Shown: positions 1 to 23,838 of the stretch, in pieces | Position numbering within the stretch: position 1 is the first letter of the stretch | How the letters are laid out: the number at the start of each line of letters is the position of its first letter | Origin: a virus | Lineage: Duplodnaviria; Caudoviricetes | Direction: 5' to 3' (one strand) | Virus record (IMG/VR): IMGVR_UViG_3300007965_000002 | Coordinates: 25,862-89,861 of that record | Length of the DNA stretch: 64,000 nucleotides | The notes under the pieces: generated by a model | Told to the model about the DNA's origin: nothing | The model's input: only the letters and a program-made list of their open reading frames with translations | The model's database searches: none | Program-made: the position numbers and the translations under genes

Positions 1-285
1 CAGTGTTCTGTGTTGAACCATGTAAACGACTTCTTGCTTGCCTGAAATAAACATAATTTTGAATCCTAGCTTAGTGGGTTGAAATTATTTTCTTACCCGA
101 CAAAGACAGTATAGCACACTGATAAATCATATCAACTATTTATTTGGTCTAAAATGAAAAACATTGTTCTTACCAGGAACCAACCAGGGTTACCGGCAGG
201 TAAACCTGCCCAGCCAGCCAGCCTAGGCAAATATACCTATTTCTTGCAAAAGTCGCTTAAATCGCTGTTTTGGCGGCTTCCTGTC

Positions 286-476
286 GGTGGATAATGTATA
301 AGGGCTGTTTCAATGATTTTTTTATCCACAGGTTATTAACAGGTTATACATTATCAACAGGGTTTATAGGCCACCAGCAACATTTTGACAATGGTAAGAC
401 CAATTGACCAAGTTATCCACAAAATTATTTTGTTTAATGTATAACTCACCTGTTAATAAGTCTAGACTTATCCACA
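286..476. promoter_or_regulatory. DnaA-box cluster 1
   Basis: Perfect TTATCCACA at 322-330, 413-421, 468-476; near-matches at 286-294 (rc), 333-341, 351-359, 451-459 (rc). Confidence 0.85.
371..378 (-). other. Chi octamer GCTGGTGG
   Basis: CCACCAGC on + strand. Confidence 0.5.
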
Positions 477-522
477 AGTACCACACATGCAAGAATCATG
501 CCAAAAAATTTTCGGCGCGGCG

Positions 523-587
523 AAATGAGAATGATTCTCATTTGCATTCAACCCAGTGAGCTACCAGGATGAGAATGATTATCATTT
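523..587. promoter_or_regulatory. Two Fur boxes
   Basis: AAATGAGAAT-G-ATTCTCATTT (523-543, perfect 10-1-10) and ATGAGAAT-G-ATTATCAT (569-585) match the TGATAAT-N-ATTATCA Fur consensus. Confidence 0.75.
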
Positions 588-609
588 GCATATGCAAGTT
601 TGCTAATAC

Positions 610-742
610 AAGTTGGCATGGTTTTTGTTGCGAACTATTATCATATGCGTTTTTGCTAATATACCTATATGCAAGTTTGCTAATATTAACATTAGATTCT
701 ACTAATATAAGTTGGCATGGTTTTTGTTGCGAACTATTATCA
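610..742 (+). repeat. 34-bp direct repeat AAGTTGGCATGGTTTTTGTTGCGAACTATTATCA (610-643, 709-742)
   Basis: Exact duplication; each copy holds a sigma54-like motif and a weak Fur-like site (TGCGAAC-T-ATTATCA). Confidence 0.9.
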
Positions 743-873
743 ACAAGAATCGTGCCAAGTCAAGAATCGTGCCATAACAGTAAAATCTAATATATAGCTC
801 TAGAACGCGCTATAACGTGATTTGCCGGTACTATTATTTTTTGAAGCCCTAGTATCAAAACCTTTTTAAAATG

Positions 874-881
874 CCACCAGC
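874..881 (-). other. Chi octamer GCTGGTGG
   Basis: CCACCAGC on + strand. Confidence 0.5.
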
Positions 882-895
882 AGCCAAAGCGTGAC

Positions 896-1189
896 TTATC
901 CACAAAGTTATCCACAAGCAATGGGGTTGACATTCTCAAAAGGCCATTTCTATCCACAATTTGCTAGTTATACATAAAAAATCTGTGGATAAGTGAATAA
1001 CTAGCATGTTTTACAAATGTCAAATTTATTTGAAATAATGCTTAACAAAGTTATCCCCACCTGGTAGAGCCTGGACGTGCCCCTTGTGGATAACTATTAC
1101 CAAATAGGCCGATTCCTTGGATTCTAGGAAAGTTATCCACAAAATTACAAACCAGGAAAATTATCTGTGGATAAGTGCCCTGTGGATAA
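896..1189. promoter_or_regulatory. DnaA-box cluster 2
   Basis: Perfect TTATCCACA at 896, 908, 1133; reverse TGTGGATAA at 984, 1085, 1166, 1181; near-matches at 950, 992, 1051. Confidence 0.85.
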
Positions 1190-1318
1190 GTACCAAATAG
1201 CACCAGATTCAACAATCTATTTGTTTTGATATACGACTGACCAAAAAATTAAAGTCGCTTAAATCGCTGTTTTGATGCCTTTACGGGCATATTAGTTATA
1301 TCTAATATATAACCATGT

Positions 1319-1334
1319 TGGCATGGTTATTGCT
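1319..1334 (+). promoter_or_regulatory. sigma54-type -24/-12 motif
   Basis: TGGCATGGTTATTGCT, GG-N10-GC spacing. Confidence 0.6.
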
Positions 1335-1534
1335 ACGCGCTCGCACCTGTTTCTTTTATAAACTAGCCCAGGCTTATGCATTCTAGTTATAACTTATATT
1401 AACTAGTTATTAGACGGTATTTTTTAAACGTGGTCTAATAGCTTCATTGAAACGGGACATCATTTCAATGTTATTTTTACCCTGTGATGTGAAGCGGCTT
1501 TGATTAGCGCGAGGTACTAGGAAAAAATAAAAGC

Positions 1535-1564
1535 TTGACAATAAAAACGGTTCCATGCAATAAT
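1535..1564 (+). promoter_or_regulatory. Pre-early sigma70 promoter
   Basis: A-rich UP element, TTGACA (1535-1540), TGcAATAAT -10 region, upstream of the first pre-early gene. Confidence 0.7.
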
Positions 1565-1592
1565 AGCTCCACTGATTAGGCAGCATCCTAAA

Positions 1593-1606
1593 CGTTCTTT
1601 AACAAT
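1593..1606 (+). promoter_or_regulatory. rrn-like boxA antitermination element
   Basis: CGTTCTTTAACAAT versus rrn boxA TGCTCTTTAACAAT, about 25 nt downstream of the predicted start site. Confidence 0.45.
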
Positions 1607-1715
1607 CTGGTAACAAAAAAGTTTCACTTGCCTAGTTAAAGTTATCATTAATCACATTATTTATTAGTAGTGTGATTATTGACTAACTTTTAGTCAATAC
1701 CACTAACTAAAATCA

Positions 1716-2117
1716 TTGGAGATTTTAAAAATGGCAAAGGCACCTAAAACCCAAGAAACGAAAAAAGCTACCGTATTGCGTAAAAATCACGGTACTAAGG
1801 GCAATTTTCCCCCTAAAAAATCTTGGGTAACATTAAACGGAAGGATTAAAACCGAAGTCGTTTTATGTTCTGGAAATTTCGAACCAATGCGAACGGGCGA
1901 CAAAGACAAAGACGCCGAAGCAATGCGACTTTATCGCGAAGCATACCGCGCCGATTTGCGAACGCTTGAACGCCAAAAACCTGTTAAGCCTAAAACATTA
2001 TTCGACCTTTATGTGTTGAACGGTGGCAAGGCAAGACACCCGAAACAGCTAGCAGGCCAAATTGTGCAAATGCTCGGTTATTCGCATAATTCAAGCGCTG
2101 AAATTCGCATTATTTAG
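1716..2117 (+). CDS. Pre-early hypothetical basic protein (likely start ATG 1731)
   Basis: ORF, Lys-rich, GGAG upstream of ATG 1731, first gene after the promoter. Confidence 0.7.
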   Translation: MEILKMAKAPKTQETKKATVLRKNHGTKGNFPPKKSWVTLNGRIKTEVVLCSGNFEPMRTGDKDKDAEAMRLYREAYRADLRTLERQKPVKPKTLFDLYVLNGGKARHPKQLAGQIVQMLGYSHNSSAEIRII

Positions 2118-2120
2118 GGG

Positions 2121-2327
2121 ATGCTAATGTTTATATTATTTGTTGCTATATACATGTTAGCGGCTTATTTAATTGGTTTATTAACAGGCCAATTATTGGA
2201 GTCAAGAGATAAAACTTTCTTTACCTCAGAGCCTATCCACGGCCACGTTTTATGTGTATTGTGTTTGTTCTGGCCTATCCTGCCCTTGCTTACGCAAGCC
2301 AGCAGGTTAAGGAAATTTAAACCGTAA
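2121..2327 (+). CDS. Pre-early small membrane protein
   Basis: 68 aa, two hydrophobic segments. Confidence 0.6.
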   Translation: MLMFILFVAIYMLAAYLIGLLTGQLLESRDKTFFTSEPIHGHVLCVLCLFWPILPLLTQASRLRKFKP

Positions 2328-2416
2328 TATAGAGTTATCTTAAAGAGCGTTTATTAAGCGCTCTTTGTGGCTAACTTTAGCCATTAACTAACTAACCCTT
2401 TCTAGGAGATTTACAA

Positions 2417-2884
2417 ATGACTACAACTAAAACACCAGCTAAAAAATTCGCTTGGAATGATGAAACCTGTTCACAAGCTGCCGCGCTTTATGCTGAATTA
2501 CTAGGTGCAACTTACAACCCTGTTACTAAAACGCTGGATTTTGAAGTTGGTTCGAAGCCTACTGTCGATTTACACACGGTAGCAAACAGCGAAAAAGCTT
2601 TAAATGCAATCGCTGTTAAAATTGGGGCGAAATCTGGTCGTGCTGTTCGCGGTAAGTTATCAAAAGAGGGCGTTTATATTACCCTTGAAGCCGTCCCAAC
2701 TCCAAGCACCTCGACACGTATCTCAAAAGGTCAGTACGTGCGTTCAATTGCCGAGGGTTTAGGCGTTGACCTTGAAACAATCCAAACGCTTGATAAGGCC
2801 AATTTAGAAGCGTTGGAAACCTTAACAGCGAAATTAAACGGAGTGTTGAAAGCTGCCGAAATGCCAGAAATCACTGTTAAGTAA
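2417..2884 (+). CDS. A2: T5 A2-like DNA-binding pre-early protein
   Basis: KKFAWNDE N-terminus, AVRGKLSKEGVY and KGQYVRSIA motifs resemble T5 A2; position upstream of A1. Confidence 0.85.
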   Translation: MTTTKTPAKKFAWNDETCSQAAALYAELLGATYNPVTKTLDFEVGSKPTVDLHTVANSEKALNAIAVKIGAKSGRAVRGKLSKEGVYITLEAVPTPSTSTRISKGQYVRSIAEGLGVDLETIQTLDKANLEALETLTAKLNGVLKAAEMPEITVK

Positions 2885-2945
2885 TTGTTAACTGGGCGTT
2901 AATTCTAGCGCCCTTTAATTTCCCGTAATGACGGAGTATTAAAAA

Positions 2946-3383
2946 ATGTTTTCACCCAAACTCAACTTATCTGATTTAGTCGCAGAGCATAAAGGCCATA
3001 TTGCAGCCGTATTAGATACCCAGTCCGAAATTGAGCGCTTAAAGGAACTAGCATTTCAGCAAAAAGAAGCGGCTAAACTTGACCGTGATACGTTAACGCA
3101 ATTAATACGCCAATTGTCTAACGAGCGTCACCCAAGCAACAACGGCATGTTGCAAGAAGCAAATGTTAGCGCTTTGCTTGGCGCAATCAATATTAACTTT
3201 ACTGCTTATAACAGCTCAAATGATGAAGTTAGACTAGCGTATGATAAGGCCGTTAACGTCTACAATGACGCAATGGTAAAGCTATTTAAAGCAAAAATAG
3301 CATATATCGAAAGTTGTGCTGTTTATGGTAGTATGGCAGGCTTATCGGTTAACTGGCAAGCGCTAGAAAAACGTAGCAAGTAA
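2946..3383 (+). CDS. Pre-early hypothetical coiled-coil protein
   Basis: 145-aa ORF with strong RBS (conserved CCCGTAATGACGGAG leader). Confidence 0.75.
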   Translation: MFSPKLNLSDLVAEHKGHIAAVLDTQSEIERLKELAFQQKEAAKLDRDTLTQLIRQLSNERHPSNNGMLQEANVSALLGAININFTAYNSSNDEVRLAYDKAVNVYNDAMVKLFKAKIAYIESCAVYGSMAGLSVNWQALEKRSK

Positions 3384-3423
3384 GCAACCCCTTTAAATTT
3401 TCCCGTAATGACGGAGTAACAAA

Positions 3424-5097
3424 ATGAAACAAGTTAAAAACCTATCTGTAGCGACACAAGCGGCATTGTTAAATCTTGCTCAAAATGAGTTTAATTATTA
3501 TGGCAAGCGTACCCGTTCAACTCGCCTAACTTGTGCTGAACAAATGCTTAGAGAATGTGAGTTAATCGGAACGGTAGAAAGTGCCGATTTAGTGGAATGG
3601 CTGGCAGAAAATAAACCAGCACCAGCACCAGCCAAAGAAAAAGCCGAAAAAGTTAACGCTCCGTTAGTTCCTACTTTCAACGGCGAGTTAATGCATCGTG
3701 ACGATATTATGCAAAGCTTACCTGATGGCGTTTATATTATTTCTAGTGCGCAAAATAATACATTGCCGCACCCTACACTAAAATCATTAAAAACTTTAGC
3801 GGGTGTTTTAGAGGCTCAACTTTTATTGATGCCTATTAAATACACAACAACGCTTGATAGCTTGGAACGCAAAACGCCAACTTATGACGATAGTGTTACA
3901 CCTTATCTAGTAGAGAATAATATCTGGCTAGGTGGTCGTGGCTGTGTTCGCTTGGCAGTTGGGGCAAATATCCTGCCAACCGCTAAGCAGCCAATTAACA
4001 CGGCAGCAAACTTGAATAAAGGCGAGTCGTTAACCGTTGTTGCCTCACCTAAAAAGCAACTCAAAACACTAGCCCGTTCAAAAGATGGTGCACATCGTTG
4101 GGTATATACAACGGGTTCATGTACACAACGCCATTACACTGACACCAGAGCAGGCGAGGAGGGATGTGATTCACATACGTTCGGGGCATTAGTTGTCACT
4201 GTTAATGAGGGTTATGTCGAGCATCAAGAAATTGTGGCAGATGAAAGCGGGGCATTTTATTATGATATGGCCTGTTATGATGGTTTTAACATAACAGAGA
4301 TTCACAAGACACCAGCACTAGTTTTAGGTGACTTACATTGTGAAAAGATGTGCGAAAACTCGCTTGTAAGAGCATTAGCCCAAATTGATATTTATCAGCC
4401 CTCACAAGTTATTTTACACGATACACTAGATTTTATGTCTAGAAATCATCACAATCGAAATAGCGGTTTGTTTCTATATACAATGGGTTCCCGCTCTGTT
4501 TTAGATGATTTAAATGATGCTGTTCATGTTGTAAATAGAATTGCTGCCCAATGCGATAGCGTTTTTATCGTTTGCAGTAATCACGACTTAGCCCTTGATA
4601 GCTGGCTTGATGACCCAAAATACAACGCTGATAAAGACCCTATCAACGCTAAAACGTATTATTTCTTGAAACATGCTGTTTTAGAAGCAATTGACAGCGG
4701 GGACGAACTAGACGCACCACGCTTAGCAATGTTTGATTTAGCAATCACTAAACTAGTCGAGCAGTTAGCGGAACCATTAGCCAGTAATGTTATATTTGGC
4801 CGTCTAGATATGAGCCATAAGATTAACGGATTCGAATGTGGTTCTCATGGGCATTTAGGTAACAGCGGCGCACGTGGTTCGCAACGCTCGTTTAAAGCTT
4901 ATCAGATGCCTTGGATTAGCGGCCATACACATTCACCCGCCCGTGATGGTAATGTGTTAACCGTGGGCGTTACTGGTTCGCTGGAAATGGGCTACAATAA
5001 AGGTGGTACTATGTGGGATAGAGCAAACGCCTTAATCCTGCCAAATGATACAGCCGTATTAATTCCCACGTATGCAATAGGAGAGCAGCAAGCATAA
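3424..5097 (+). CDS. A1: T5 A1-like protein (metallophosphoesterase-fold nuclease; host DNA degradation / second-step transfer)
   Basis: 557 aa; EFNYYGKR, SSAQNNT, GDLH, SNHD, GHTHS motifs; synteny. Confidence 0.92.
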   Translation: MKQVKNLSVATQAALLNLAQNEFNYYGKRTRSTRLTCAEQMLRECELIGTVESADLVEWLAENKPAPAPAKEKAEKVNAPLVPTFNGELMHRDDIMQSLPDGVYIISSAQNNTLPHPTLKSLKTLAGVLEAQLLLMPIKYTTTLDSLERKTPTYDDSVTPYLVENNIWLGGRGCVRLAVGANILPTAKQPINTAANLNKGESLTVVASPKKQLKTLARSKDGAHRWVYTTGSCTQRHYTDTRAGEEGCDSHTFGALVVTVNEGYVEHQEIVADESGAFYYDMACYDGFNITEIHKTPALVLGDLHCEKMCENSLVRALAQIDIYQPSQVILHDTLDFMSRNHHNRNSGLFLYTMGSRSVLDDLNDAVHVVNRIAAQCDSVFIVCSNHDLALDSWLDDPKYNADKDPINAKTYYFLKHAVLEAIDSGDELDAPRLAMFDLAITKLVEQLAEPLASNVIFGRLDMSHKINGFECGSHGHLGNSGARGSQRSFKAYQMPWISGHTHSPARDGNVLTVGVTGSLEMGYNKGGTMWDRANALILPNDTAVLIPTYAIGEQQA

Positions 5098-5136
5098 TGT
5101 TAGATAGAGATTATAACGGCTACCCCATTAAGTAAC

Positions 5137-5172
5137 TTAACCCGCTTTGTTCCACGTGGAACAAAGCAACCC
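5137..5172. repeat. 36-bp repeat copy 1 with parS palindrome TGTTCCACGTGGAACA (5148-5163)
   Basis: Perfect 16-bp parS inside a 24-bp palindrome (5144-5167); identical copy at 5432-5467. Confidence 0.8.
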
Positions 5173-5194
5173 CCCTTTTTACGGAGTTACCCAA

Positions 5195-5431
5195 ATGTCA
5201 CAAGTTAATATCACGTTTACCAAAGACACCCCAGAATCATTCGAACCTGAAACAGGGCAATTTTTTCAGGTTAATGAATGCCATACAAACGAATTGATTT
5301 TAATAACTGACGACACCCATGTGTGCGTTATTTTATCTAGTGGTCAATTAATGGACGTTGAAAACCTAGACGAAAAGCTTACCCGCGATAACTTAGTTAT
5401 TGATTTAAAAATCGAAGCAACCATTAAATAA
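5195..5431 (+). CDS. Pre-early hypothetical protein (78 aa; ORF track start 5147 overlaps the palindrome)
   Basis: GGAG RBS upstream of ATG 5195. Confidence 0.7.
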   Translation: MSQVNITFTKDTPESFEPETGQFFQVNECHTNELILITDDTHVCVILSSGQLMDVENLDEKLTRDNLVIDLKIEATIK

Positions 5432-5467
5432 TTAACCCGCTTTGTTCCACGTGGAACAAAGCAACCC
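5432..5467. repeat. 36-bp repeat copy 2 with parS palindrome (5443-5458)
   Basis: Exact duplicate of 5137-5172. Confidence 0.8.
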
Positions 5468-5497
5468 TTTTTCCCCGTAATGACGGAGTATTAAAAA

Positions 5498-6121
5498 ATG
5501 AGCCAATTTAAGCCAAAGCATATTACAATTTTTGACCTAGACAGAACCGTTATAGATAGCGACCATCGCACCCCCTACGATAATGATGGCAACCTAGATT
5601 TAGCAGCATATCGCGACAACCAAACACACGCTAACATTATGAATGACACACTTTTACCCTTAGCTAAACTTATGCAATCGCGCATAGCCCAAGGGGAAAC
5701 CGTGGTAATCGTTACTGCAAGGCGCATGATTAAGAGTGATTACATATACCTAAGAAAGAACGGATTAAAAACCGCGTATACTTGCAGTCGTGACCAATTA
5801 TTCAAGCGCTTCGATAATGAAACCGCATCAATGATTTATAATCTTAATGATGCAAACTACAAATGGCATTGGTTTAACCATTTACAGAACCGTTTTCCTC
5901 TTGCCTCGTTTACTGTATACGATGACCATAAAGGCGTATTAAAGGTGGCGCAATCGTTTGGCTTTCAAGTGTACGATGCAATTAGTGTTAATAGTATGCT
6001 GGCTGATTTTCTTGATATGGGATTTGAAGAAGGATTTGCGCAAGGATTAGACGCGGGTTATCTGGACGGGGAAATGAGCGCTATTCATCAGGTAATTGAA
6101 TTTGACAGCAGAGCAGCCTAA
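5498..6121 (+). CDS. dmp: Deoxynucleoside-5'-monophosphatase (HAD family)
   Basis: IFDLDRTVIDSDHR motif I, VTAR motif II, YDDH motif IV; last pre-early gene as in T5. Confidence 0.9.
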   Translation: MSQFKPKHITIFDLDRTVIDSDHRTPYDNDGNLDLAAYRDNQTHANIMNDTLLPLAKLMQSRIAQGETVVIVTARRMIKSDYIYLRKNGLKTAYTCSRDQLFKRFDNETASMIYNLNDANYKWHWFNHLQNRFPLASFTVYDDHKGVLKVAQSFGFQVYDAISVNSMLADFLDMGFEEGFAQGLDAGYLDGEMSAIHQVIEFDSRAA

Positions 6122-6201
6122 GCGCAATGCTGGTAGTATATGCATCAATGCTAATATAGTGCAATATGTTAGCATTGCATTATCCCCCTGTTAGAGCATT
6201 A

Positions 6202-6232
6202 GCCCTTACTAATATATAGTAAGGGCATTTTT
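6202..6232 (+). terminator. Rho-independent terminator after dmp
   Basis: GCCCTTACTA-atata-TAGTAAGGGC followed by ATTTTT. Confidence 0.8.
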
Positions 6233-6241
6233 ATTATGTAC

Positions 6242-6348
6242 AAATGATAATCAATATCAAATGAGAATCATTCGCATATGATAAGCCAGGAACAAATGAT
6301 AATCATTCGCATTTAGGGTGGGGGCGGTAATGAGACTCATTCTCATTT
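6242..6348. promoter_or_regulatory. Four Fur-box-like sites at the presumed terminal-repeat boundary
   Basis: 6242-6262, 6259-6279, 6294-6314, 6328-6348, all TGA(T/G)A(A/C)T-C-A(T/A)T(A/C)(T/G)CA. Confidence 0.7.
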
Positions 6349-6443
6349 GACCCAGGCCCCACCCCTTTTCATGTAACTACTATGAAAAATTAGAGGAAAT
6401 GGCTTAGGCCGCCTCTAAGAGCAACTAAGCGGTTCCCTGAAAG

Positions 6444-6597
6444 CAACTATGCATAATTCCCCAACTATGCATAATTCCCATAACTATACATAATTCCCAT
6501 AACTATGCATAATTCCCCTAACTCCCTATACTCCCTTTACTTCCCAACTTCCTATACTCCCTTTACTTCCTATACTCCCCGCACCCCTCCACTCCCA
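6444..6597 (+). repeat. Tandem 18-19 bp repeats (x4, YAACTATRCATAATTCCC) followed by a C/T-rich tract
   Basis: Units at 6444, 6462, 6481, 6500; CCTATACTCCC repeats 6524-6580. Confidence 0.85.
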
Positions 6598-6698
6598 AAG
6601 AGACTACTAATCTAAAAGACTCCAAATACAATTCTTAATTTTTTAATTTAAAAATACTTGGCTAGTACCTTACTTGCATCCGAGGTAGAAAATTAATC

Positions 6699-6727
6699 TT
6701 TACATATATTAATAATAACGTTATAAT
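6699..6727 (+). promoter_or_regulatory. Promoter for packaging genes
   Basis: TTTACA-17-TATAAT. Confidence 0.75.
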
Positions 6728-6763
6728 AACCCTATTATTAACACACATCTAAGAGGAAAGTAT

Positions 6764-7249
6764 ATGTCTACCCAAGATAAACTAGTAGAGTATGATGACG
6801 CGTTGCTCCCAGAGACTATTAGTCCCCAGGGATTATTAATTGCAGACACATACCTAACCAATGGCCAAGATGCTAAGAAAACAGCTCTAGCTTTAAAGAT
6901 TGATGAACAAGAAGTTCGTAGATTATTAAGAACACCAGAAGTCCGTTCGTATACTAACGCAGTATTCATGGAGACAGGCTTCAGAAATAGACACCGCATG
7001 TTTGGTGCCTTAGACGAGATTATTAACCGTAAGTTAGAAGAAATGGAAGAAACTGGTACTACTACAGATGCAGATATTTTAGAACTAATGGTTAAGTATC
7101 ATAACATGAAAATGGCAGAGATGAAAATGGAAAAGGAACTACACGAAGCTAAGTCCCCTACCATAGGTCGTCAGAATAACGTACAAGTTAACCTTAATGG
7201 CGGCAGCAACTACGACAATCTTCTAGCCTCCCTAGCCAAAGGAAATTAA
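6764..7249 (+). CDS. terS: Terminase small subunit
   Basis: ISPQGLLIADTYL, VFMETGFRNR resemble T5 TerS; directly upstream of TerL. Confidence 0.85.
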   Translation: MSTQDKLVEYDDALLPETISPQGLLIADTYLTNGQDAKKTALALKIDEQEVRRLLRTPEVRSYTNAVFMETGFRNRHRMFGALDEIINRKLEEMEETGTTTDADILELMVKYHNMKMAEMKMEKELHEAKSPTIGRQNNVQVNLNGGSNYDNLLASLAKGN

Positions 7250-8557
7250 ATGGAACTCTCTAGAGATTTTATTTCACGTACTAGCATAACCAACTACCCT
7301 GTCGGGGAAAGATTTTTCAAATTGCCTGTCGAAAATATGATGTTGCAGGAAGGAATTATCCCCAACGAGCCACAAATAGCTATCATTAATGCGTTGAACG
7401 ATCCTAACATACGCTTCGTGGTCGGCTGCGTTTCTAGGCGTGTCGGAAAATCTTTCATCGCCTATACTTTAGGATTCTTAAAAGCTTTAGAGCCTAATGT
7501 AAAAGTACTAGTTGTGTGCCCCAACTACTCGCTAGCGAATATTGGTTGGACACATATCAAAGGACTTATACGTAAGTATGGTTTAGAAACAGAGAAAGAA
7601 AACGCCAAGGATAAAGAGATTGAGTTATCTAATGGTACTCTTATTAAACTAGCTTCTGCTGGTAATGCTGACTCCGCTGTTGGTCGTTCTTACGACTTTA
7701 TTATATTTGACGAAGCGGCTATCTCACCTAAGGGTGGGGATGCTTTCTCAATTCAGTTACGCCCTACACTTGATAAACCTAACTCTAAAGCTTTGTTTAT
7801 TTCAACACCTCGAGGTGCTAACTGGTTCCAAGAGTTCTACCGTCGTGGGTTTAGTAGTGATCCCTTGTTATCTAAGTGGTGTTCATTACATGGTACTTAC
7901 CGTGATAACCCTCGTGCTAGTAAGGAAGATATTGATGAAGCACGTGCTAATAATAGCCCTGCATTCTTTAAACAAGAATACGAAGCTGACTTTGCAACGT
8001 TTGAGGGTCAAATTTACGAATCATTCGATTACGAGGAACATGTATTCAATGATGAGGACTTATATGGCCGCTTAATGGTTTCGGAAGATTGTGAGGGTAT
8101 CCTAGGTATTGACCCAGGTTATCGTGACCCAACTGCCATGACAGGTATTAAGTATGATGACGAATCTGACTGCTACTATATTCTAGATGAGTATGAAGAA
8201 GCAGGTGCTCAGACTTCTGTTCACGCTAAGTTTATTAGACAGTTCGAAGATAGATTTGATCCTCACTATATATTCGTTGACTCGGCGGCTGCTCAGTTTA
8301 TTGCTGACTTAGCTTACGATTATGATATATCTAGTGCGAAAGCTAATAAAGCTCAGTCCGAGGGGATTGGACACTTAGCATCATTAATACATGCAGGTAA
8401 GATAAAAGTATGGCATAAGTGTACTAAGACTATTAGTATGTTTATGAACTATAGATGGGATGATAAAGAAGGCTTAACTTCAGAACGTCCTTTACACAAT
8501 GAATACTCTCATATGGCAGATGCCGTGAGATACGCAATTTATACACACAATAGATAA
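7250..8557 (+). CDS. terL: Terminase large subunit
   Basis: SRRVGKS Walker A, FIIFDEAA Walker B, ISTPRG, GIDPG and HMADA nuclease motifs. Confidence 0.97.
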   Translation: MELSRDFISRTSITNYPVGERFFKLPVENMMLQEGIIPNEPQIAIINALNDPNIRFVVGCVSRRVGKSFIAYTLGFLKALEPNVKVLVVCPNYSLANIGWTHIKGLIRKYGLETEKENAKDKEIELSNGTLIKLASAGNADSAVGRSYDFIIFDEAAISPKGGDAFSIQLRPTLDKPNSKALFISTPRGANWFQEFYRRGFSSDPLLSKWCSLHGTYRDNPRASKEDIDEARANNSPAFFKQEYEADFATFEGQIYESFDYEEHVFNDEDLYGRLMVSEDCEGILGIDPGYRDPTAMTGIKYDDESDCYYILDEYEEAGAQTSVHAKFIRQFEDRFDPHYIFVDSAAAQFIADLAYDYDISSAKANKAQSEGIGHLASLIHAGKIKVWHKCTKTISMFMNYRWDDKEGLTSERPLHNEYSHMADAVRYAIYTHNR

Positions 8558-8577
8558 TTCTTAGGAGAAATTATAAC

Positions 8578-8856
8578 ATGGCAGATACAATTAATGCAGT
8601 ACCAGTTTACGGTGACCAGTACTACTCATTGAATGCACTCACAGGCACGCCTGTGGGAACTGCAATAACAATACAAAATCAAGGAGACTCAGTGCTAGCC
8701 ATTAATGTTGGAGCTACTAAGCCTGCTGCTACTACTAAGGCTAGACGTTTAGTCCCTACAGATATAGGCTTTATTGCTTATATAGAAGCGGGCTCGTCAG
8801 AAGTCTGGGTTAAAGCTATTAATGGGGCTACTGACGCACATGTAGAGGTGGCTTAA
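8578..8856 (+). CDS. Hypothetical beta-rich (possible virion) protein
   Basis: 92-aa ORF, AGGAG RBS, overlaps the next start. Confidence 0.7.
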   Translation: MADTINAVPVYGDQYYSLNALTGTPVGTAITIQNQGDSVLAINVGATKPAATTKARRLVPTDIGFIAYIEAGSSEVWVKAINGATDAHVEVA

Positions 8857-9707
8857 TGAGTATACTAATTAGAGGTGGTGGTGTAGTACCTCCTCTTACT
8901 AACTTAGCACTTACTAGACTTAGTACCTATATTGCTCAACTACTAAGCTCAGGTCAATTATCCTTTACTTCTCAACCACAAAGTAAAGCAGTTGACCAGT
9001 ATTCCCTAGCTACCTTTAGTTGTGTTATTTTAGGGGGGGTAGGACCATATACTTATCAGTGGAAGAAGAATGGTATTAACGTAGGTACTAATAGTGATTC
9101 ACTATCTTTTGTAGCTGCTACTACGGATAAAAATGCATCGATTACGGTTACTGTGACTGATAGTGTTGGCACTATAATTACTTCTAGTGCCGCAATTTTA
9201 GGTGTGACGAGTTATGTATACCAATTAGACGGTGTGGCTCAATACCACAAGTTGAGCAACCAAATACCTTTTGATGCCAATACAGTAATAAAGATTAAAT
9301 TTTTAGGTGTGCCGTCTTTTTTTGGGGCGTATCGAAAGTTTATAGAGTCAGCAGATTATGCAACGAGAGTTGACTCTAATGCTTCTGGAAACACATTTAG
9401 ACTTAATAGCTGTACCGCTAAACTTGATGGTATAGCTATATCAACAGGAACAGCAATACCGACTTCAGGGTGGCATACATTAGAAATAACTCCAACATCT
9501 ACCAGCTCATTGGCTACAATAGGAAGTCGTGGATCTGGAGAATTATCAATATGGGGATTATTTGGATTTGAAGTAATTAAATCAGGAGTTATATCTAATA
9601 ATATACCATTAAATAATAAATCTGCTGGTGCTAACCAGCTTGCTACTGCTGGAAGCATCAACGCTACGATAGTTAATTATAATCCAGCGGGGTGGGTAGC
9701 ATTATGA
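8856..9707 (+). CDS. Ig-like plus lectin/LamG-like domain protein, probable virion surface protein
   Basis: GGVGPYTYQWKKNG...VTVTDS Ig signature; C-terminal beta-sandwich with GWHTLEI. Confidence 0.7.
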   Translation: MSILIRGGGVVPPLTNLALTRLSTYIAQLLSSGQLSFTSQPQSKAVDQYSLATFSCVILGGVGPYTYQWKKNGINVGTNSDSLSFVAATTDKNASITVTVTDSVGTIITSSAAILGVTSYVYQLDGVAQYHKLSNQIPFDANTVIKIKFLGVPSFFGAYRKFIESADYATRVDSNASGNTFRLNSCTAKLDGIAISTGTAIPTSGWHTLEITPTSTSSLATIGSRGSGELSIWGLFGFEVIKSGVISNNIPLNNKSAGANQLATAGSINATIVNYNPAGWVAL

Positions 9708-9985
9708 TACAATTAGATACTTGGGTTAATTCTGGTATGTATATATTTGTTATATTATCTGAGGAGGGTTATCAGGCTAATGAGATAGCTAAGACAACTT
9801 GGCCTAGTGCAGCTATATATGGCGACTATCGATTAGTTAATTTTCATAAAGATAACGTAGAGGAGTTTATAGCACAATTAGACTCCCTAGGTTATACTCC
9901 TACGTATGGTTTAGGAGGAAATACTCCTATGCTAGTTACTTGGGAAGAGGCTAAAGAATTTACTGCACAATATAATATTGAGTGA
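9692..9985 (+). CDS. Hypothetical protein
   Basis: 97-aa ORF coupled to the upstream gene. Confidence 0.6.
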   Translation: MGSIMIQLDTWVNSGMYIFVILSEEGYQANEIAKTTWPSAAIYGDYRLVNFHKDNVEEFIAQLDSLGYTPTYGLGGNTPMLVTWEEAKEFTAQYNIE

Positions 9986-10002
9986 TTTAATACTTGTAAA
10001 AG

Positions 10003-10036
10003 TACAACCATACTAGTTAGTTCTGGTATGGTTGTA
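10003..10036 (+). terminator. Hairpin after the three-gene insertion
   Basis: TACAACCATAC...GTATGGTTGTA inverted repeat. Confidence 0.55.
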
Positions 10037-10103
10037 TTATAAATATTACTTTACAAATCTAAATATTACTTTATAATAGATTCTAAGTTAGAGGAACAAA
10101 TAC

Positions 10104-10565
10104 ATGGCAACAAACACTAGAAGTGTTATCAAGTGGATTAGGGACTTAGCTAAAAGCCATTATGCAAAAGATACAAAATGTGCAATATGTGGTGTGGAAC
10201 ACGAACTGGAGTTCCATCACTATAATACGGTTTCCTTGACCGTTAACAACTACGTCAAACAACACGGAATATCTGTGGATACTAAAGAAGATATTCTTGC
10301 TATGCGAGAACCATTTTTAAAAGAGAAGTGGCGTGAGATGGTTGAGGAAGCTGTAACCCTTTGTGCTAGTCATCATAAGTTACTGCATAAATTATATGGT
10401 AAAGAGCCTGCTCTAAATACCGCAAAAAAACAAGAAATCTGGGTTGAGCGTCAAAGAGAAAAAGTAGCTAGTGGAACCGAGGGTGCTTTAATAGTATCAC
10501 TACCCTCTAGTCTAACCCAATTTTGTACCGATTCACAACCACTAAGTAATTTCATAACGAGGTAA
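10104..10565 (+). CDS. HNH endonuclease (T5 nicking-endonuclease position)
   Basis: CAICG...EFHH...VTLCASHHKLLH; immediately upstream of portal; TTTACA-17-TATAAT promoter upstream. Confidence 0.85.
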   Translation: MATNTRSVIKWIRDLAKSHYAKDTKCAICGVEHELEFHHYNTVSLTVNNYVKQHGISVDTKEDILAMREPFLKEKWREMVEEAVTLCASHHKLLHKLYGKEPALNTAKKQEIWVERQREKVASGTEGALIVSLPSSLTQFCTDSQPLSNFITR

Positions 10566-10567
10566 TA

Positions 10568-11776
10568 ATGGGACTTTGGCACTCAATAGTAGAGAAACTA
10601 AATCCATCACAAGAAAGAATAAAAAATAGTGATCCCGGTGGTAAACGTACTACTAGTGATCCTTATACCATATCACAAGCTTACCGTGAGGTAGAGTTTG
10701 TAAACAGAGCGGTTAACATGTTTGTTGATTCTTGCTCTGAAGTTACATATGACGTAAAGGAAAAACATGCTGGTGTAATATCGCATGGTACGGGTGTACG
10801 AAAGGATCAACTACAAAAACTTTTAAATGTTCAACCAAATCCATATATGGATGTAAACTTATTCCGTCGCCTAGTCTTTATGGACTTAATTATGGAAGGA
10901 GCAGCCTACATCTTCTGGGACGGCGCAGGTTTATACCCGCTACCAGCATCCCAGATGGAAGTAGTTATGGACAAGAAAAAGTTTATTAATAAGTTTGTAT
11001 TTGCTGGTAAGGATGATTATCGTCCAGACCAAATTATCTTTATTAAAGATAACGCATACTATGCAAATACAGTTATGACTAGCGGATATAGTCGTCTAGC
11101 TTCTTCACTAGCTAGTATCAAACGTCTACGTAAGTTAGCAACCTTTAAAGAAAAGTTCTATGATAATGGAGCTGTACTTGGTTTAGTTATTGAAACTGAC
11201 CAATTATTAAGTAAAAAACATAAACAACGTTACGAAGAAGAAACTTCTATTAGGTATAATCCTAGTACAGGTAAATCTAGCGTACTAGTTTTAGATGGTG
11301 GGTTTAAGGCAAAGTCGGTATCAAATACTAGTTTCCGTGATATGGGGACTAAGGAAGATCAGGATGATTTACGTGTGTCTATAGCAACAGCTATTGGTAT
11401 ACCTCCTATATTATTTGACTCCGGTAATAATGCTAATATCAGACCTAACCTAGATTTATTTTACTCTATGACTGTAATGCCTACACTACGTAAGGCAGAG
11501 GCTGCGATAGAGTTCTTCTTCGGTTATGATGTTAAGCTAATGACAGAAGATGTTATGGCTCTAGCACCAGATAAGAAGATTCAAGCAGACTATGTTAGTG
11601 CACTTGTTAATAACGGTATTATTACTGGTAATGAGGGTCGCGGAATGCTACGTCTAGTTGAACTAACAGACGAGGAAATGACTAAGATCAGAATACCTCA
11701 GAATATTGCAGGCTCAGGAACTGGAGTTACTGGACAAACCGGTGGTAAACCACCCGCAAAAGAGGAAAAGAAATAA
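10568..11776 (+). CDS. pb7: Portal protein (HK97-type, T5 pb7)
   Basis: 402 aa, PNPYM, GIPPIL, GIITGNEGR motifs; synteny. Confidence 0.95.
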   Translation: MGLWHSIVEKLNPSQERIKNSDPGGKRTTSDPYTISQAYREVEFVNRAVNMFVDSCSEVTYDVKEKHAGVISHGTGVRKDQLQKLLNVQPNPYMDVNLFRRLVFMDLIMEGAAYIFWDGAGLYPLPASQMEVVMDKKKFINKFVFAGKDDYRPDQIIFIKDNAYYANTVMTSGYSRLASSLASIKRLRKLATFKEKFYDNGAVLGLVIETDQLLSKKHKQRYEEETSIRYNPSTGKSSVLVLDGGFKAKSVSNTSFRDMGTKEDQDDLRVSIATAIGIPPILFDSGNNANIRPNLDLFYSMTVMPTLRKAEAAIEFFFGYDVKLMTEDVMALAPDKKIQADYVSALVNNGIITGNEGRGMLRLVELTDEEMTKIRIPQNIAGSGTGVTGQTGGKPPAKEEKK

Positions 11777-13198
11777 ATGATTGAAACATGGCCTAATGAG
11801 ATAATGGAAGAGTTATTACAGATATTTAATGGTACTATACCTGAGAGCCATATATTCTATGCACATAGTGGTACCCCTACAAGAGCACAGTTATATGATT
11901 TTATAAAGAGATATAAACAAGGCGACCTTGAGAACCGTAAAGAACTTGATTTATGGAAGGACTTCTTAAATGTTTATACCTACTATGTAGCTAATAGAAA
12001 GTTTAATAGTCTTAATCTAAGTGAGTTACGTACTAACAGTGGTTATGATACATATTTAGCTTCATTAAGTGATTTAATTAATAATACTGGTAGTACATAT
12101 GTTACTGATATTCAAGTAAATGCTATAGCAGAAGATATTGCTCTAGGTACTTTGGATTTAAACGCTTATAATTTTATTATTAAACAAATAGTACCAGGAC
12201 CACTACAGACTAGTGGTTACTGGGTAGCTGGTACACTTTCTGGGGATGGCGATACACTAATAAGTGCTCGTAGGTATAACTCTACTGCGGCTATAAGCCG
12301 AGATTCTGGACTTAATTGGTCTGAGTTTACTGTCCCAGGTGCTACTAATAAAACTTATAAATTTATTACTAATTTTGATGGTAATACTATTATAGCACTA
12401 GATACAGGTATTAGTGAGGATATAGTAAATTACTCTATAGATGGTGGTCTAAATTGGATTACATTACCTGCCTTACCCACAGGTACGGCAGCATTAGTAT
12501 CTGGCTTTAATAGTGGTTGGGTATCTGATGATAGTAGTATTATTAGACTAATCTCTGCTACTGGTGAGTTTTTACTTGAGTACTCAAGTGGTTCTTGGAG
12601 TACTTTAACAAATCCATATACACAAACAGCTGTTGTATTTAGCGAGTATGCTTCACTAAATAATCCTATAATTCTTAATAATGTTGAGGGTGATACCTGT
12701 ATTATAATAAACGATAATAAGATATTTATTAGTAAAGATGGTTGTAGAAACTGGTCACTACAGGAAATACAATTTAGCGGGTACTGGTCTAGTGCAAGCA
12801 TGTCGCATAATACTAATAGTATAGTGATATGTGATGGTAACGATGCTGCTCATATAGTTTCTTATGATGGTGGTGCTACATGGAATAATTTAGTTCTACC
12901 TACTGATTTACTTTCTGATTATTTACAAGTAAATATATCATATGACGGTAAGCAGTTATTCGGATTTGTCCAAGGCTCTAATAACGAAGCTGTATTAGGT
13001 TACTCTCCAGATAGAGGAGCTACTTGGACTAGAAATGTATTAAGTACAGCTGGTGTAGGAGAGTTTCTACAGTGGCAAGACTTAGGTAATAATGGTGTTA
13101 CTTATGTATTAGCAGCTAGAAATACAACTAGTACCCTTAGAACTGGAGATTCAGGCCAAAATTGGCATCTCAGTAGCACTGTAGGAGCAGTATTATAA
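11777..13198 (+). CDS. Capsid decoration-like protein: pb10-type N-terminal anchor fused to an Asp-box (BNR) beta-propeller
   Basis: IFNGTIPESHIFYA resembles the T5 pb10 N-domain; six SxDxGxxW-type boxes. Confidence 0.7.
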   Translation: MIETWPNEIMEELLQIFNGTIPESHIFYAHSGTPTRAQLYDFIKRYKQGDLENRKELDLWKDFLNVYTYYVANRKFNSLNLSELRTNSGYDTYLASLSDLINNTGSTYVTDIQVNAIAEDIALGTLDLNAYNFIIKQIVPGPLQTSGYWVAGTLSGDGDTLISARRYNSTAAISRDSGLNWSEFTVPGATNKTYKFITNFDGNTIIALDTGISEDIVNYSIDGGLNWITLPALPTGTAALVSGFNSGWVSDDSSIIRLISATGEFLLEYSSGSWSTLTNPYTQTAVVFSEYASLNNPIILNNVEGDTCIIINDNKIFISKDGCRNWSLQEIQFSGYWSSASMSHNTNSIVICDGNDAAHIVSYDGGATWNNLVLPTDLLSDYLQVNISYDGKQLFGFVQGSNNEAVLGYSPDRGATWTRNVLSTAGVGEFLQWQDLGNNGVTYVLAARNTTSTLRTGDSGQNWHLSSTVGAVL

Positions 13199-20235: not shown

Positions 20236-23200
20236 ATGGCTAATAAATTAATCGAAGAGCTAATTATTAACGTTAAACAGAAAGGTCTAACTACTGTCAC
20301 TAATAATGTTAAGAAGCTCCAAGATAATATGGTAAATGCTGCTGCTGGTGCTGAACTATTAGACAGTTCCCTTAAACCTATCCCAGAATCTTTAAAACAA
20401 ATTCTAGCCGAGGCTAAACAAGTTGATCAGATAATAGGTAACTTAGGTATGGGGGCAGGTACTGATAGACTAGAAGCAGTTCTGCAAGAAATTGAAGATA
20501 GTATGCTAGAACTAGTGGGTTCATCTGTTAAAATGAATGAAACCTTAGAGCAAGGCTTTAAAAGTATGTCATCTAATAGTGCTAATGAAATTCATGATTT
20601 AATAGTACAGTTAGAGAGATTAGAAGATACTACTGAGAACGTAGGTAGACGTAATACACTTCAAACTCAATTAAATGAAAAACTAGCTGCATCACAAGAA
20701 CGAGTAAATAGAGGCCTAGGGCGTACTAATGCTCAAGGTAGGGGGCAGGCGAGAAACTTTGCTAATATAGCTAGAGTAGCTGGACCACTACCAGGTCTAT
20801 ATGCTGTTATAGCTGCTAACGTATTTACTTTATCTGAGGCTTTCCGTGTAATGACAGAGGGAGATCAGTTAAATAGGTTAGAAAAAGTTGGTACTATACT
20901 AGGGGCACAAGTTGGTGTTCCTATACAAAGTATTGCTCGTGATATGGAAGAAGCAACAGGTTATACTATTAGTTATGAGCAGGCACTAAGACAAGCTACA
21001 TCTGCTGCCACATATGGGTTTGGTGCAGAACAAATTACTGATATGACCATAGCTGCTCGTAGAGCCTCAGTTGCTCTAGGTGTAGATATGACAGATGCGC
21101 TAAACCGTATTATACGTGGTGTGTCTAAGTTAGAGATTGAATTATTAGATGAATTAGGTATTACAGTTAGGTTGACAGAAGCCTATGATACGTATGCACG
21201 TAGTATCGGTAAGACAGCAGATTCTTTATCTGGTTATCAAAAACAACAGGCATACTTAAACGCTGTTCTTAAAGAATCTGAAGCAAGACAGTCTGCAGTA
21301 GACCCCCTTACCCAAGCTACTGGTTGGGAAAGATTAGGTGCTTCACTATCTGGAGCAACTACTAGAGGTAAACAGTGGATTTCAGGATTCCTAGAACCAG
21401 CGGCTGCAGCAGCTGCTAATATATTTAGTGAAGATAATCTTACTAAAGGTCAAAAAGTTATAGAAGCTAATCTTGAAACTCTTAAGAAGTCTATTGAGGC
21501 AGGGGATAAAGGTAGTGTATATAGTATGTTAACTGGAGATGCTAAAGCGCAAGCACAGTATAAAAAGTTAAATGCTGATATGTTAAACCTACAATATCAA
21601 GCTGAACTTATGAGAGATACTTTAGCGGCAACACCAGATAACTTAGGGAAGAATTTAATTTATAGACAGATTAGTGGTATAGAGTCAGCTATTGATGCAG
21701 TAACTGCTAAGATGAGAGTGTATAATGAGGCCCTTGAGTCAGGTAAGACGTATTTGAATAAGCACTCAGATGCACAAATAGAAGCAGGTAATGAGGCGTA
21801 TAAAGAAGCTGCATCTATTGCTAAAAGTGCAGAAGAATATACAAAGATTACTTCAGCAGTAAAGGGGGTAGCTAAACCTTATGAAGTACTACAAAATAAT
21901 TTAACTAGTGTAAGTGAGGGGTTAGCTAACTTTATAGCTATTGGTGGTACGGCTGAGGAGTTCTATAAGGAAATTAAAATCTCCAAGGAGACTATAGATG
22001 GTTATACTAACCTACAGGCTGCAATGGAGAAAGTAGCAGTTGCTACTGCCACACTTGGGGCATCACAAGCAGCTATTACTTGGTCTGATGCACAGAAAGG
22101 GGTTGCTACAGAAACTACTGCACTTAAGTTACAACAACAAAGTATTAATCTTCTAACTAAAGAGATAGCACTAGCTAAGCAAGCTTCTGCAACTAAATCA
22201 GAGGGTTCAATATTAGAACTAGAAGCTCAGCGTAATACTTTAATAAGTGAGCGTGGTTTCTTATTACAAGCAGAGGCTAGAGCACTATTAGATGCATCTC
22301 AGTCTACTAGAGAACTATCATTATTACAGGCTACATATATTGATCAAGTAGCTAATGCTTCATCTGAGTATGTTAGACAGAAAGCTATAACAACTCAACA
22401 GTTGATATTCCAACAGGAACAACTAGATTTAGCAGTAGCACAGAATAAACCACTAGCTGAGCGAGCTGCTCTTGAGATGCAGATACTACAAACTAAACAG
22501 AAGAGTACGGACTTAGATAAAGCTGAGTTAACTAACAAGTTTGGTAAAGAGACAGATGCATTAAATCAAGGTAACTCTACTGGTAATGCTGGGCCTATTA
22601 GTGACCTAACTAAGCAGGTACAGCTAGCAGAGCAACAAACTGCTATTGCACAAGCTAAAGGAGCTGAGTTCCATGATCAATACTTAGAGCGTTTAAGTAA
22701 TGAACTAGCATTAAAAGTCCAATTACAGCAGATGGAATTAAGTAGGGAGGCTACATTACAAAACCTATTTATGTCTAGAATAGGTATGCAGTCTACTATA
22801 GCTATGAATATGGAAGAAGAGTTGGCCTACCAAAACCAAATTGGGGCATCAATATACGAATCATCTAGAGCTGTATTAGATGGTTTTGACCCAGCTATGG
22901 GATCTATGTTCGATGGCCTAGAGAAGTTTACTTACGCATTGAAAAATATGGGTAATACTTCAGAGGGGGTTTGGAATGGTGTTAGCTCAGGTATCCAAGC
23001 TGCTGCTGGTGTTATGTCATTTATGTCAGACCAAGCTATTCAGGATATTGATAAGCAAATAGAGGCAGAAAAGAAAAAGGATGGTAAATCTGCTGAGTCT
23101 AAGAAAAAGATAGCACAACTAGAAGCTAAGCGTAAAAATGAAGAAATGAAAGCCAAAAGAATCAGTATTGTTTCAAGTACTGCTGCTGGTATCATGCAAT

Positions 23201-23703
23201 CATTTGCTCAGTTAGGTCCATGGGGCGCAGTACCTGCTGCTATGATTGCAGCTATGGGTGCTATGCAGCTATCTTCACTTGATTCTGGAACCGTTGCTGA
23301 CCCTTCAGGGGCTGGTAATATAGGTAAACTAGAGTTAGGTAGTAGAGATAACGTTGTTAACCTAGATAAAGGAGCTACAAGTGGAGAACTAAACTATGTT
23401 CGCGGTAATAGCGGTGTTGGTGGAATTCAAGACTTTGTACCTAGAGCACGTGGTAATAACATGAGTCCTAACGTTTCTTATGCTACTGGTGAACATGGCA
23501 TAGAGGTTGTATCTTCTGATAGTTCTAGAACTAGTGTTACTTCTGCTGAGAATGTAGATGGAACTTCTTCAGGAAGAAAAGGTATAGGTATGGCACTTAC
23601 TATTAATGCACTTGACTCTCAGTCTGTTATAGATAGAGCTGCTGAAATCTTTGCTGCTGTAGAGGCAGAAGCAAACTCTAGGGGTTATACTTTAGAGAGA
23701 TAA
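20236..23703 (+). CDS. pb2: Tape measure protein (pb2-like)
   Basis: 1155 aa helical Ala/Gln-rich, C-terminal hydrophobic segment; synteny. Confidence 0.92.
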   Translation: MANKLIEELIINVKQKGLTTVTNNVKKLQDNMVNAAAGAELLDSSLKPIPESLKQILAEAKQVDQIIGNLGMGAGTDRLEAVLQEIEDSMLELVGSSVKMNETLEQGFKSMSSNSANEIHDLIVQLERLEDTTENVGRRNTLQTQLNEKLAASQERVNRGLGRTNAQGRGQARNFANIARVAGPLPGLYAVIAANVFTLSEAFRVMTEGDQLNRLEKVGTILGAQVGVPIQSIARDMEEATGYTISYEQALRQATSAATYGFGAEQITDMTIAARRASVALGVDMTDALNRIIRGVSKLEIELLDELGITVRLTEAYDTYARSIGKTADSLSGYQKQQAYLNAVLKESEARQSAVDPLTQATGWERLGASLSGATTRGKQWISGFLEPAAAAAANIFSEDNLTKGQKVIEANLETLKKSIEAGDKGSVYSMLTGDAKAQAQYKKLNADMLNLQYQAELMRDTLAATPDNLGKNLIYRQISGIESAIDAVTAKMRVYNEALESGKTYLNKHSDAQIEAGNEAYKEAASIAKSAEEYTKITSAVKGVAKPYEVLQNNLTSVSEGLANFIAIGGTAEEFYKEIKISKETIDGYTNLQAAMEKVAVATATLGASQAAITWSDAQKGVATETTALKLQQQSINLLTKEIALAKQASATKSEGSILELEAQRNTLISERGFLLQAEARALLDASQSTRELSLLQATYIDQVANASSEYVRQKAITTQQLIFQQEQLDLAVAQNKPLAERAALEMQILQTKQKSTDLDKAELTNKFGKETDALNQGNSTGNAGPISDLTKQVQLAEQQTAIAQAKGAEFHDQYLERLSNELALKVQLQQMELSREATLQNLFMSRIGMQSTIAMNMEEELAYQNQIGASIYESSRAVLDGFDPAMGSMFDGLEKFTYALKNMGNTSEGVWNGVSSGIQAAAGVMSFMSDQAIQDIDKQIEAEKKKDGKSAESKKKIAQLEAKRKNEEMKAKRISIVSSTAAGIMQSFAQLGPWGAVPAAMIAAMGAMQLSSLDSGTVADPSGAGNIGKLELGSRDNVVNLDKGATSGELNYVRGNSGVGGIQDFVPRARGNNMSPNVSYATGEHGIEVVSSDSSRTSVTSAENVDGTSSGRKGIGMALTINALDSQSVIDRAAEIFAAVEAEANSRGYTLER

Positions 23704-23744: not shown

Positions 23745-23838
23745 ATTTTAATAAATTTAGATTAAAAACTTTACTTTACAAATCTTTTATAGTATGATAT
23801 AACACATATAGTTTAATAAACATCATTGAGGAACTAAA

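Follow-up and report, generated by a model that had tools for sequence, protein, structure and literature searches.

The gene-free block between two divergent pre-early operons of a marine T5-like phage contains six motifs of the sigma54 (-24/-12) type. On a modest balance of the evidence, these motifs would be recognition sites for the host sigma54 holoenzyme (E-sigma54, RpoN), with the two outer sites acting as enhancer-dependent promoters and the four inner sites being non-initiating, and the block would be a divergent control region and not an injection stop. This mixed model was adopted because the evidence for and against promoter function both stand and because of the literature on closed complexes (PMC3844500).

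The window analyzed here is the whole 64-kb stretch covering bases 25862-89861 of an 89.9-kb IMG/VR record, whose completeness is estimated at 77%. Contig coordinates refer to the full record. The A1 product encoded in the window (557 amino acids) shares 49% identity with the A1 "DNA transfer protein" of Vibrio T5-like Demerecviridae. Relatives were obtained by protein search and contig look-ups. The hosts of the cultured relatives are Vibrio harveyi, V. campbellii, and V. parahaemolyticus, and the close uncultured relatives share the gene order small ORF, A2 (PF26822), A1, dNMPase, and small terminase. The metagenome contigs of three relatives (L010, L011, and L012) end at or just before the A2/A1 genes; these breaks are consistent with assembly failure in repeat-rich terminal-repeat blocks. 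Cultured phages were searched with the 1.7-kb block for near and distant nucleotide matches, with no useful result, and a search of IMG/VR with back-translated A1 gave no match. An Rfam search of the block found no RNA family, and its sole match was a sub-threshold one to a plant snoRNA model. The features of the block and its flanks are collected in Table 1.

Table 1. Features of the gene-free block and the adjoining operons, in window coordinates; regulatory elements are predictions.
Feature	Position	Strand	Details
Start of leftward pre-early operon	1-55	-	ATG at 55-53; ORF continues past the left edge of the window
Gene-free block	56-1715		1.66 kb; holds all six motifs, between two divergent operons
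Sigma70-like promoter, leftward operon	108-135	-	TTGATA-16-TATACT
Left DnaA cluster	322-476		Three perfect boxes; includes the 16-mer TTATCCACAGGTTATT
Full-consensus sigma54-type element	488-503	-	TGGCATG-ATTC-TTGCA; directed left at the leftward pre-early operon
Two Fur-box-like palindromes	523-541, 569-587		GAGAATGATTCTC and GAGAATGATTATC; between sigma54 sites 1 and 2; kept in L007
Sigma54-type element, TTGT at -12	614-629	+	Within a 41-nt direct repeat
Second TTGT-type element	713-728	+	In the 41-nt repeat copy, 98% identical to the first
Sigma54-type element, TTGT at -12	742-757	-	Convergent with 713-728
Sigma54-type element, TTGA at -12	759-774	-	Tandem with 742-757 at 17 bp
Right DnaA cluster	896-1189		Seven perfect boxes
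Full-consensus sigma54-type element	1319-1334	+	TGGCATG-GTTA-TTGCT; directed right at the operon with A2 and A1
Sigma70-like promoter, rightward	1535-1564	+	TTGACA-18-AATAAT, 11/12 positions; between the 1319 site and the first ORF
First ORF of rightward pre-early operon	1731-2117	+	Followed by A2 (2417-2884) and A1 (3424-5097)

The pattern TGGCAYGRTTNTTG has six zero-mismatch matches between window positions 488 and 1334, on both strands, at 490-503(-), 614-627(+), 713-726(+), 744-757(-), 761-774(-), and 1319-1332(+). One further match, with one mismatch, occurs in the 64 kb. The chance expectation from 100 dinucleotide shuffles is 0.20 per 64 kb, and a count of seven was reached in no shuffle. 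A sequence-only reading of this DNA had reported six motifs within about 850 bp in both orientations, two of full consensus and four with TTGT or TTGA at -12. The count of six was reproduced exactly, both outer sites fit TGGCAYG-N4-TTGCW, and the variants were verified at the remaining four. This strict 16-mer has four copies in the 89.9-kb record, all within two repeat blocks, and two of them precede the window at contig 23773(+) and 24044(-). The six window motifs and these two upstream sites form a set of eight in two non-coding pre-early (terminal-repeat) blocks. GG and GC are exactly 10 bp apart in both outer sites and in both strict upstream sites; at the four inner sites, GT or GA replaces GC. 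Site 488-503(-) has a copy at contig 24044-24059 and is kept in the uncultured relative L007, and the DnaA box at 468-476 overlies its predicted start region. Site 614-629(+) is kept in L007 as TGGCACGGTTTTTGTT and can also be read as a sigma70-like TTGGCA-17-TATTAT.

The sigma54 character of these motifs was examined by anchoring on TGGCA only in 27 non-redundant oriented control regions, which comprised this phage, two T5-like relatives, and 24 IMG/VR stretches carrying the 19-mer core of the 1319 site. At 97 unique TGGCA-anchored sites, TTGC stands at the exact -12 offset in 55 and TTG in 8 more, with a chance for TTGC of 1/256. The spacers vary (GGGTA, GACTC, GAAAA, GATTC, and AGATA, among others), and TGGCA is followed by C or T and TTGC by A or T. 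Because TGGCA alone was the anchor, the bipartite signature is not an artifact of the search pattern. The RpoN ChIP-seq motif of V. cholerae is tGGcacnnttttTGC with an AT-rich spacer and T at -14 (Dong and Mekalanos 2012, PMC3439928). The phage motif fits it in a comparison of consensus strings. Both have the TGGCAC-N5-TTGCW layout, an AT-rich spacer, T at -14, and tolerance of TTGA at -12. The V. cholerae sites supported by ChIP-seq or RNA-seq include variant -12 elements, namely, TTGA (flaA) and TTTA (flgIJ) (PMC3439928), and the inner phage sites therefore lie within natural variation. Unlike bacterial RpoN promoters, the phage sites are found in a virulent phage, are clustered in both orientations with some copies 17-31 bp apart, lack a recognized enhancer and an activator gene, and are predicted sites only. 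The identification of the six motifs as sigma54-type sites is well supported by sequence and comparison. The sigma54 assignment made in the sequence-only reading is upheld against chance and against a phage operator. A second sigma54 site, TGGCATGACTCTTGC, recurs in seven IMG/VR loci (L015, L025, L032, L036, L040, L046, and L050), and 15 nt of it are identical to the core of the V. cholerae flrBC promoter (PMC3439928).

The sites are conserved among T5-like phages whose A1 proteins are 36-76% identical, cultured Vibrio phages included. In four uncultured relatives (L006-L009, A1 76% identical), sites 1, 2, and 6 (the 488-, 614-, and 1319-types) are kept by position, and the sequences align through a module of sigma54 site, GC motif, two Fur boxes, and sigma54 site. 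In Vibrio phage Cody (A1 49%), the site ahead of A2 is retained at a similar distance: it precedes A2 by 438 nt, and in the present phage it precedes the first ORF by 412 nt. About 30 Vibrio Thalassavirus records share a 26-nt core of the 1319 site with 100% identity, and the two copies per record place it in both terminal repeats. At least four strict sites, next to DnaA boxes, are present in Vibrio phage VPG01 (genus Vipunavirus). Three distant uncultured T5-like phages carry 5-8 sites each. One of them (L076) has the same "one plus, two minus" layout as the window sites, another (L078) has five sites in about 120 bp, and the third (L077) has five sites, all directed at a leftward gene and four of them at a 59-bp period. 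These four tandem consensus sites of L077 (3043-3308) keep the period exactly, with the fifth site 88 bp further, and the repeat unit also keeps the flanks CTAAGT and TAGTATATT. At the 1319 site, the spacer GGTTA and the following CTACGCG are exactly conserved. This conservation exceeds the known requirement of sigma54, and it weighs against the sigma54 reading.

The left end of T5 (positions 1-12000) contains no TGGCAYG-N4-TTG and no GGCAY-N5-TKGC. Vibrio-type hosts keep the sigma54 activators of flagellar genes active, and enterobacteria are not known to use sigma54 for flagella. It can be speculated that the absence of the motif from T5 reflects this aspect of host biology.

The element is also found in phages that are not T5-like. 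The 19-mer TTGGCAYGGTTATTGCTAC of the 1319 site occurs in 37 IMG/VR stretches, of which only 2 encode A1 or A2, both from one Vibrio-phage record. The other stretches belong to several lineages with different terminases, some with a primase-helicase and a family-A DNA polymerase, and marine phages without A1 or A2, including Zobellviridae podophages, carry the element. Conservation at these loci ends about 4-6 nt on either side of the element. Twenty loci extend at least 800 nt downstream of the 19-mer, and in every one of them (20/20) it faces a plus-strand coding block on that side; where upstream sequence suffices, the upstream coding is always on the minus strand, which places the 19-mer at a divergent junction. 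It is often preceded by DnaA boxes and by one or two more full-consensus sigma54 sites. A search for a candidate shared phage factor found no early protein family common to the 19-mer lineages and the T5-like phages; because no such family is shared, the only common factor would be a host one. In 596 Gb of bacterial genomes, the 19-mer has 21 scattered matches, which is about the chance level, and none is in Vibrio; a copied host promoter was ruled out on this basis. Taken together, the element appears to be a portable module that heads gene blocks, usually beside DnaA boxes, in several unrelated marine lineages. Single sigma54-like matches in Pseudomonas phages PollyC and GP100 and Vibrio phage 275E43-1, which are short BLAST matches with E-values of 1-4, are only suggestive.

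Several other elements accompany the motifs. The 64-kb window has ten perfect DnaA boxes (TTATCCACA), every one of which falls within 322-1189, in two clusters on either side of the sigma54/Fur core. A strict sigma54 site ahead of the window has a DnaA box immediately next to its -24 element (contig 23764-23788). In the unrelated marine phage loci L014, L025, and L039, Fur-like boxes (AATGAGAATCATTATCA) near-identical to the window palindromes stand immediately before the first early start codon. The core of DnaA, sigma54, and Fur elements is bracketed by a 31-nt direct repeat (249-279 and 1251-1281, 90% identical, 1002 bp apart), and in L007 and Cody, a related element, GCTTAAATCGC, stands in front of the site that precedes A2. 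A scan with simple patterns returned one IHF-like site at 130 and one 12-bp TTGCATATGCAA palindrome at 586. The leftward promoter with its leader (window 52-138) is duplicated at contig 25030-25116 (87%), before a second leftward gene block. A sigma70 scan yielded 15 promoter-like sites against 7.7 expected, and single sigma70 calls are weak for this reason.

The gene order of T5 provides the reference for the position of the block. In T5, dmp, A1, and A2 read leftward and are separated from the divergent operon ORF011-017 by Repeat Regions 1 and 2. Repeat Region 3, beyond the ORF011-017 operon, is the candidate for the injection stop (Davison 2020, bioRxiv 10.1101/866236). The 16-mer TTATCCACAGGTTATT is identical to part of the T5 inverted repeat D in Repeat Region 2. 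Gene order and this 16-mer identify the motif block as the divergent promoter region, which corresponds to Repeat Regions 1 and 2 of T5. The block that matches Repeat Region 3 lies outside the window, at contig 22.56-24.1 kb, and contains the two strict upstream sigma54 sites. Because the block lies between divergent operons and carries the inverted-repeat-D 16-mer, the six sites are not at the injection stop. Repeat Regions 1-3 of T5 have their position between or beyond the pre-early operons, their DnaA clusters, and the 16-mer in common with this phage. In contrast, DnaA boxes alone enter the injection-stop model of T5 (Davison 2020, bioRxiv 10.1101/866236), and the sigma54-type motif is absent from the T5 left end. 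In that comparison of 25 T5-like phages, the words "sigma" and "Vibrio" do not appear. The Repeat Region 3-equivalent block also contains runs of AGACGTCT-type octamers (MetJ-box-like) and other short tandem motifs (contig 23500-23600 and 25130-25150). A near-perfect sigma70 promoter, TTGACA-17-TAAAAT, at contig 22512-22545 faces a GC-rich, ORF-free stretch of about 100 nt, which could be a small RNA.

Evidence on promoter function points in two directions. The orientation rule of the 19-mer is in its favor, as is the outward direction of the consensus sites, which face both operons. The conserved distance of the 1319-type site from the A2-containing operon speaks for it as well. On the other side, both operons already appear to be served by strong sigma70-like promoters. 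Each outer site precedes its operon by about 400 nt, and a sigma70-like promoter lies within that interval. The inner four are directed at one another or at non-coding DNA, and no gene of the same orientation lies downstream of them. The sequence-only reading held that the motifs have no gene to drive; this is true of the inner four and fails for the outer two, which are followed by the operon ATGs at 55 and 1731. Its further claim that the sites are for binding or decoy and are not promoters is likewise divided. It agrees with the inner four, which are unlike ordinary promoters in that they converge or stand 17 bp apart and have non-consensus -12 elements, and it conflicts with the genes downstream of the outer two. 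The footprint of a sigma54 closed complex is about 30 bp, and neighbors at 17 bp are thus too close for simultaneous holoenzyme binding. Tight arrays, such as the five sites in L078 and the 17-bp neighbors of the window, fit a binding array better than a set of promoters. These observations suggest that the outer sites are probably enhancer-dependent promoters and that the inner sites are probably binding-only.

A binding-only role has parallels in bacteria. Stable closed complexes of E-sigma54 form in the absence of an activator, and a role in repression or transcriptional interference has been suggested for orphan sites (PMC3844500). The orphan or intragenic sigma54 sites of Salmonella, E. 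coli, and V. cholerae resemble the phage sites in being consensus-like with no obvious gene to drive, and action via closed complexes, interference, or small RNAs has been proposed for them (PMC3844500). They are scattered singly in chromosomes (PMC3844500), whereas the phage DNA bears a dense conserved array. In the 89.9-kb record, there is no match to PF00158 (Sigma54_activat) above the cut-off, no match to Sigma54_DBD, and no GAFTGA motif. These searches rule out a phage-encoded sigma54 or activator for the 89.9-kb sequence. NtrC-, LuxO-, and FleQ-type enhancers were not recognized by simple patterns. Since the phage encodes no activator and no enhancer was recognized, firing of the promoters would depend on a host activator.

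Other explanations of the motifs were weighed against this one. The sequence-only reading had proposed decoy or roadblock sites, at which a non-initiating E-sigma54 clamp helps to halt DNA transfer at the injection stop. Stable closed complexes that need no activator, the proposed repressive or interfering role of orphan sites (PMC3844500), and the missing activator gene all agree with a clamp, as do the converging and overlapping inner sites and the tight arrays of relatives. Two strict sites do sit in the Repeat Region 3-equivalent block, upstream of the window. The clamp is nevertheless distinctly unlikely, because the six sites themselves belong to the counterpart of Repeat Regions 1 and 2 and because the motif is missing from the 12-kb left end of T5, the phage that served to demonstrate two-step injection. 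Furthermore, marine phages without A1/A2, Zobellviridae podophages among them, carry the element at the head of gene blocks, the orientation rule holds in 20/20 loci, and a DNA-bound complex in the cytoplasm has no obvious way to stop ejection. The inner sites could instead be sigma70 promoters whose sigma54 resemblance is secondary, since TTGGCA can serve as a -35 element for TATTAT at 613-641 and 712-740 and TTGACT-16-GATAAT is found at 763-736 (10/12 positions), and T5 pre-early regions are known for strong sigma70 promoters, which are annotated in T5. This reading is improbable: L007 loses the -10 hexamer and keeps the TGGCAYG-N4-TTG core, the most conserved site (1319) has no -10 hexamer at the right spacing, and single calls carry little weight in a scan with about twice the expected number of sites.

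An operator for a phage DNA-binding protein, either A2 or another pre-early protein, with a resemblance to sigma54 sites only, would explain the exactly conserved spacer and 3' flank of the 1319 site among the T5-like phages, and sites 713(+) and 744(-) make a long inverted repeat. It is less probable still, as the motif occurs in lineages with no early protein in common with the T5-like phages, T5 has A2 and yet no motif, and the element is asymmetric and bipartite with a spacer that varies across sites. It is scarcely credible that the motifs are functionless repeat debris left by duplication of one ancestral segment. Sites 614 and 713 do lie in a 41-nt duplication, and site 488 is part of a module duplicated at contig 24044; however, the core persists in otherwise unalignable flanks, both within the genome and across phages with A1 36-76% identical.

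Under the preferred mixed model, host E-sigma54 would dock on the phage DNA after its entry into the cell. The outer sites, 488-503(-) and 1319-1334(+), would serve as enhancer-dependent promoters that precede the sigma70 promoters of both operons and would fire while a host activator ATPase is active, a host activator being invoked because the phage encodes none. At the inner four sites, E-sigma54 would probably stay in closed complexes that do not initiate, and no more than one holoenzyme would occupy each overlapping pair. Sigma54 binding, promoter activity, and the identity of the activator are what we infer here from the motifs and their arrangement. A broader hypothesis, which is possible but rather unlikely, is that a shared, portable module of consensus RpoN sites and DnaA boxes, often with Fur boxes, heads a gene block and loads closed-complex E-sigma54 and other host proteins on the first-entering DNA and does not serve ordinary promotion. 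Such loading could set the timing of early transcription, insulate it, or link it to the state of the host. The lineages concerned, unrelated virulent marine phages, include T5-like siphophages, Zobellviridae-like podophages, and several uncultured groups.

One validated sigma54-like promoter is reported for Pseudomonas phage YuA (Ceyssens et al. 2008, as cited and re-detected in PMC10914365). YuA is likewise a phage that uses a host sigma54-type promoter without a sigma54 of its own. It is reported with a single promoter (PMC10914365), whereas the present sites form a multi-copy pre-early array with a core common to unrelated marine lineages. A Salmonella rpoN mutant resists a T5-like phage, and this effect was traced to RpoS and glutamine (PMC8744999). 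Literature searches turned up no account of sigma54 sites for either T5-like or Zobellviridae phages. The sites look like a conserved and undescribed way of engaging host transcription that is common to Vibrio T5-like phages and unrelated marine phages and is not found in T5.

T5-type phages are the classical model of staged DNA entry and of strong sigma70 early promoters. If host E-sigma54 docks on the pre-early region, early expression or shut-off would hinge on a host route that needs an activator ATPase. In Vibrio-type hosts, the sigma54 route is tied to motility, nitrogen, and envelope stress. The shared 19-nt core appears to mark a mobile regulatory module and could aid the annotation of early regions in marine viral metagenomes. 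If the proposed model is true, it would provide a testable link between host physiology and infection, and the cultured phages Cody and VPG01 carry the same sites.
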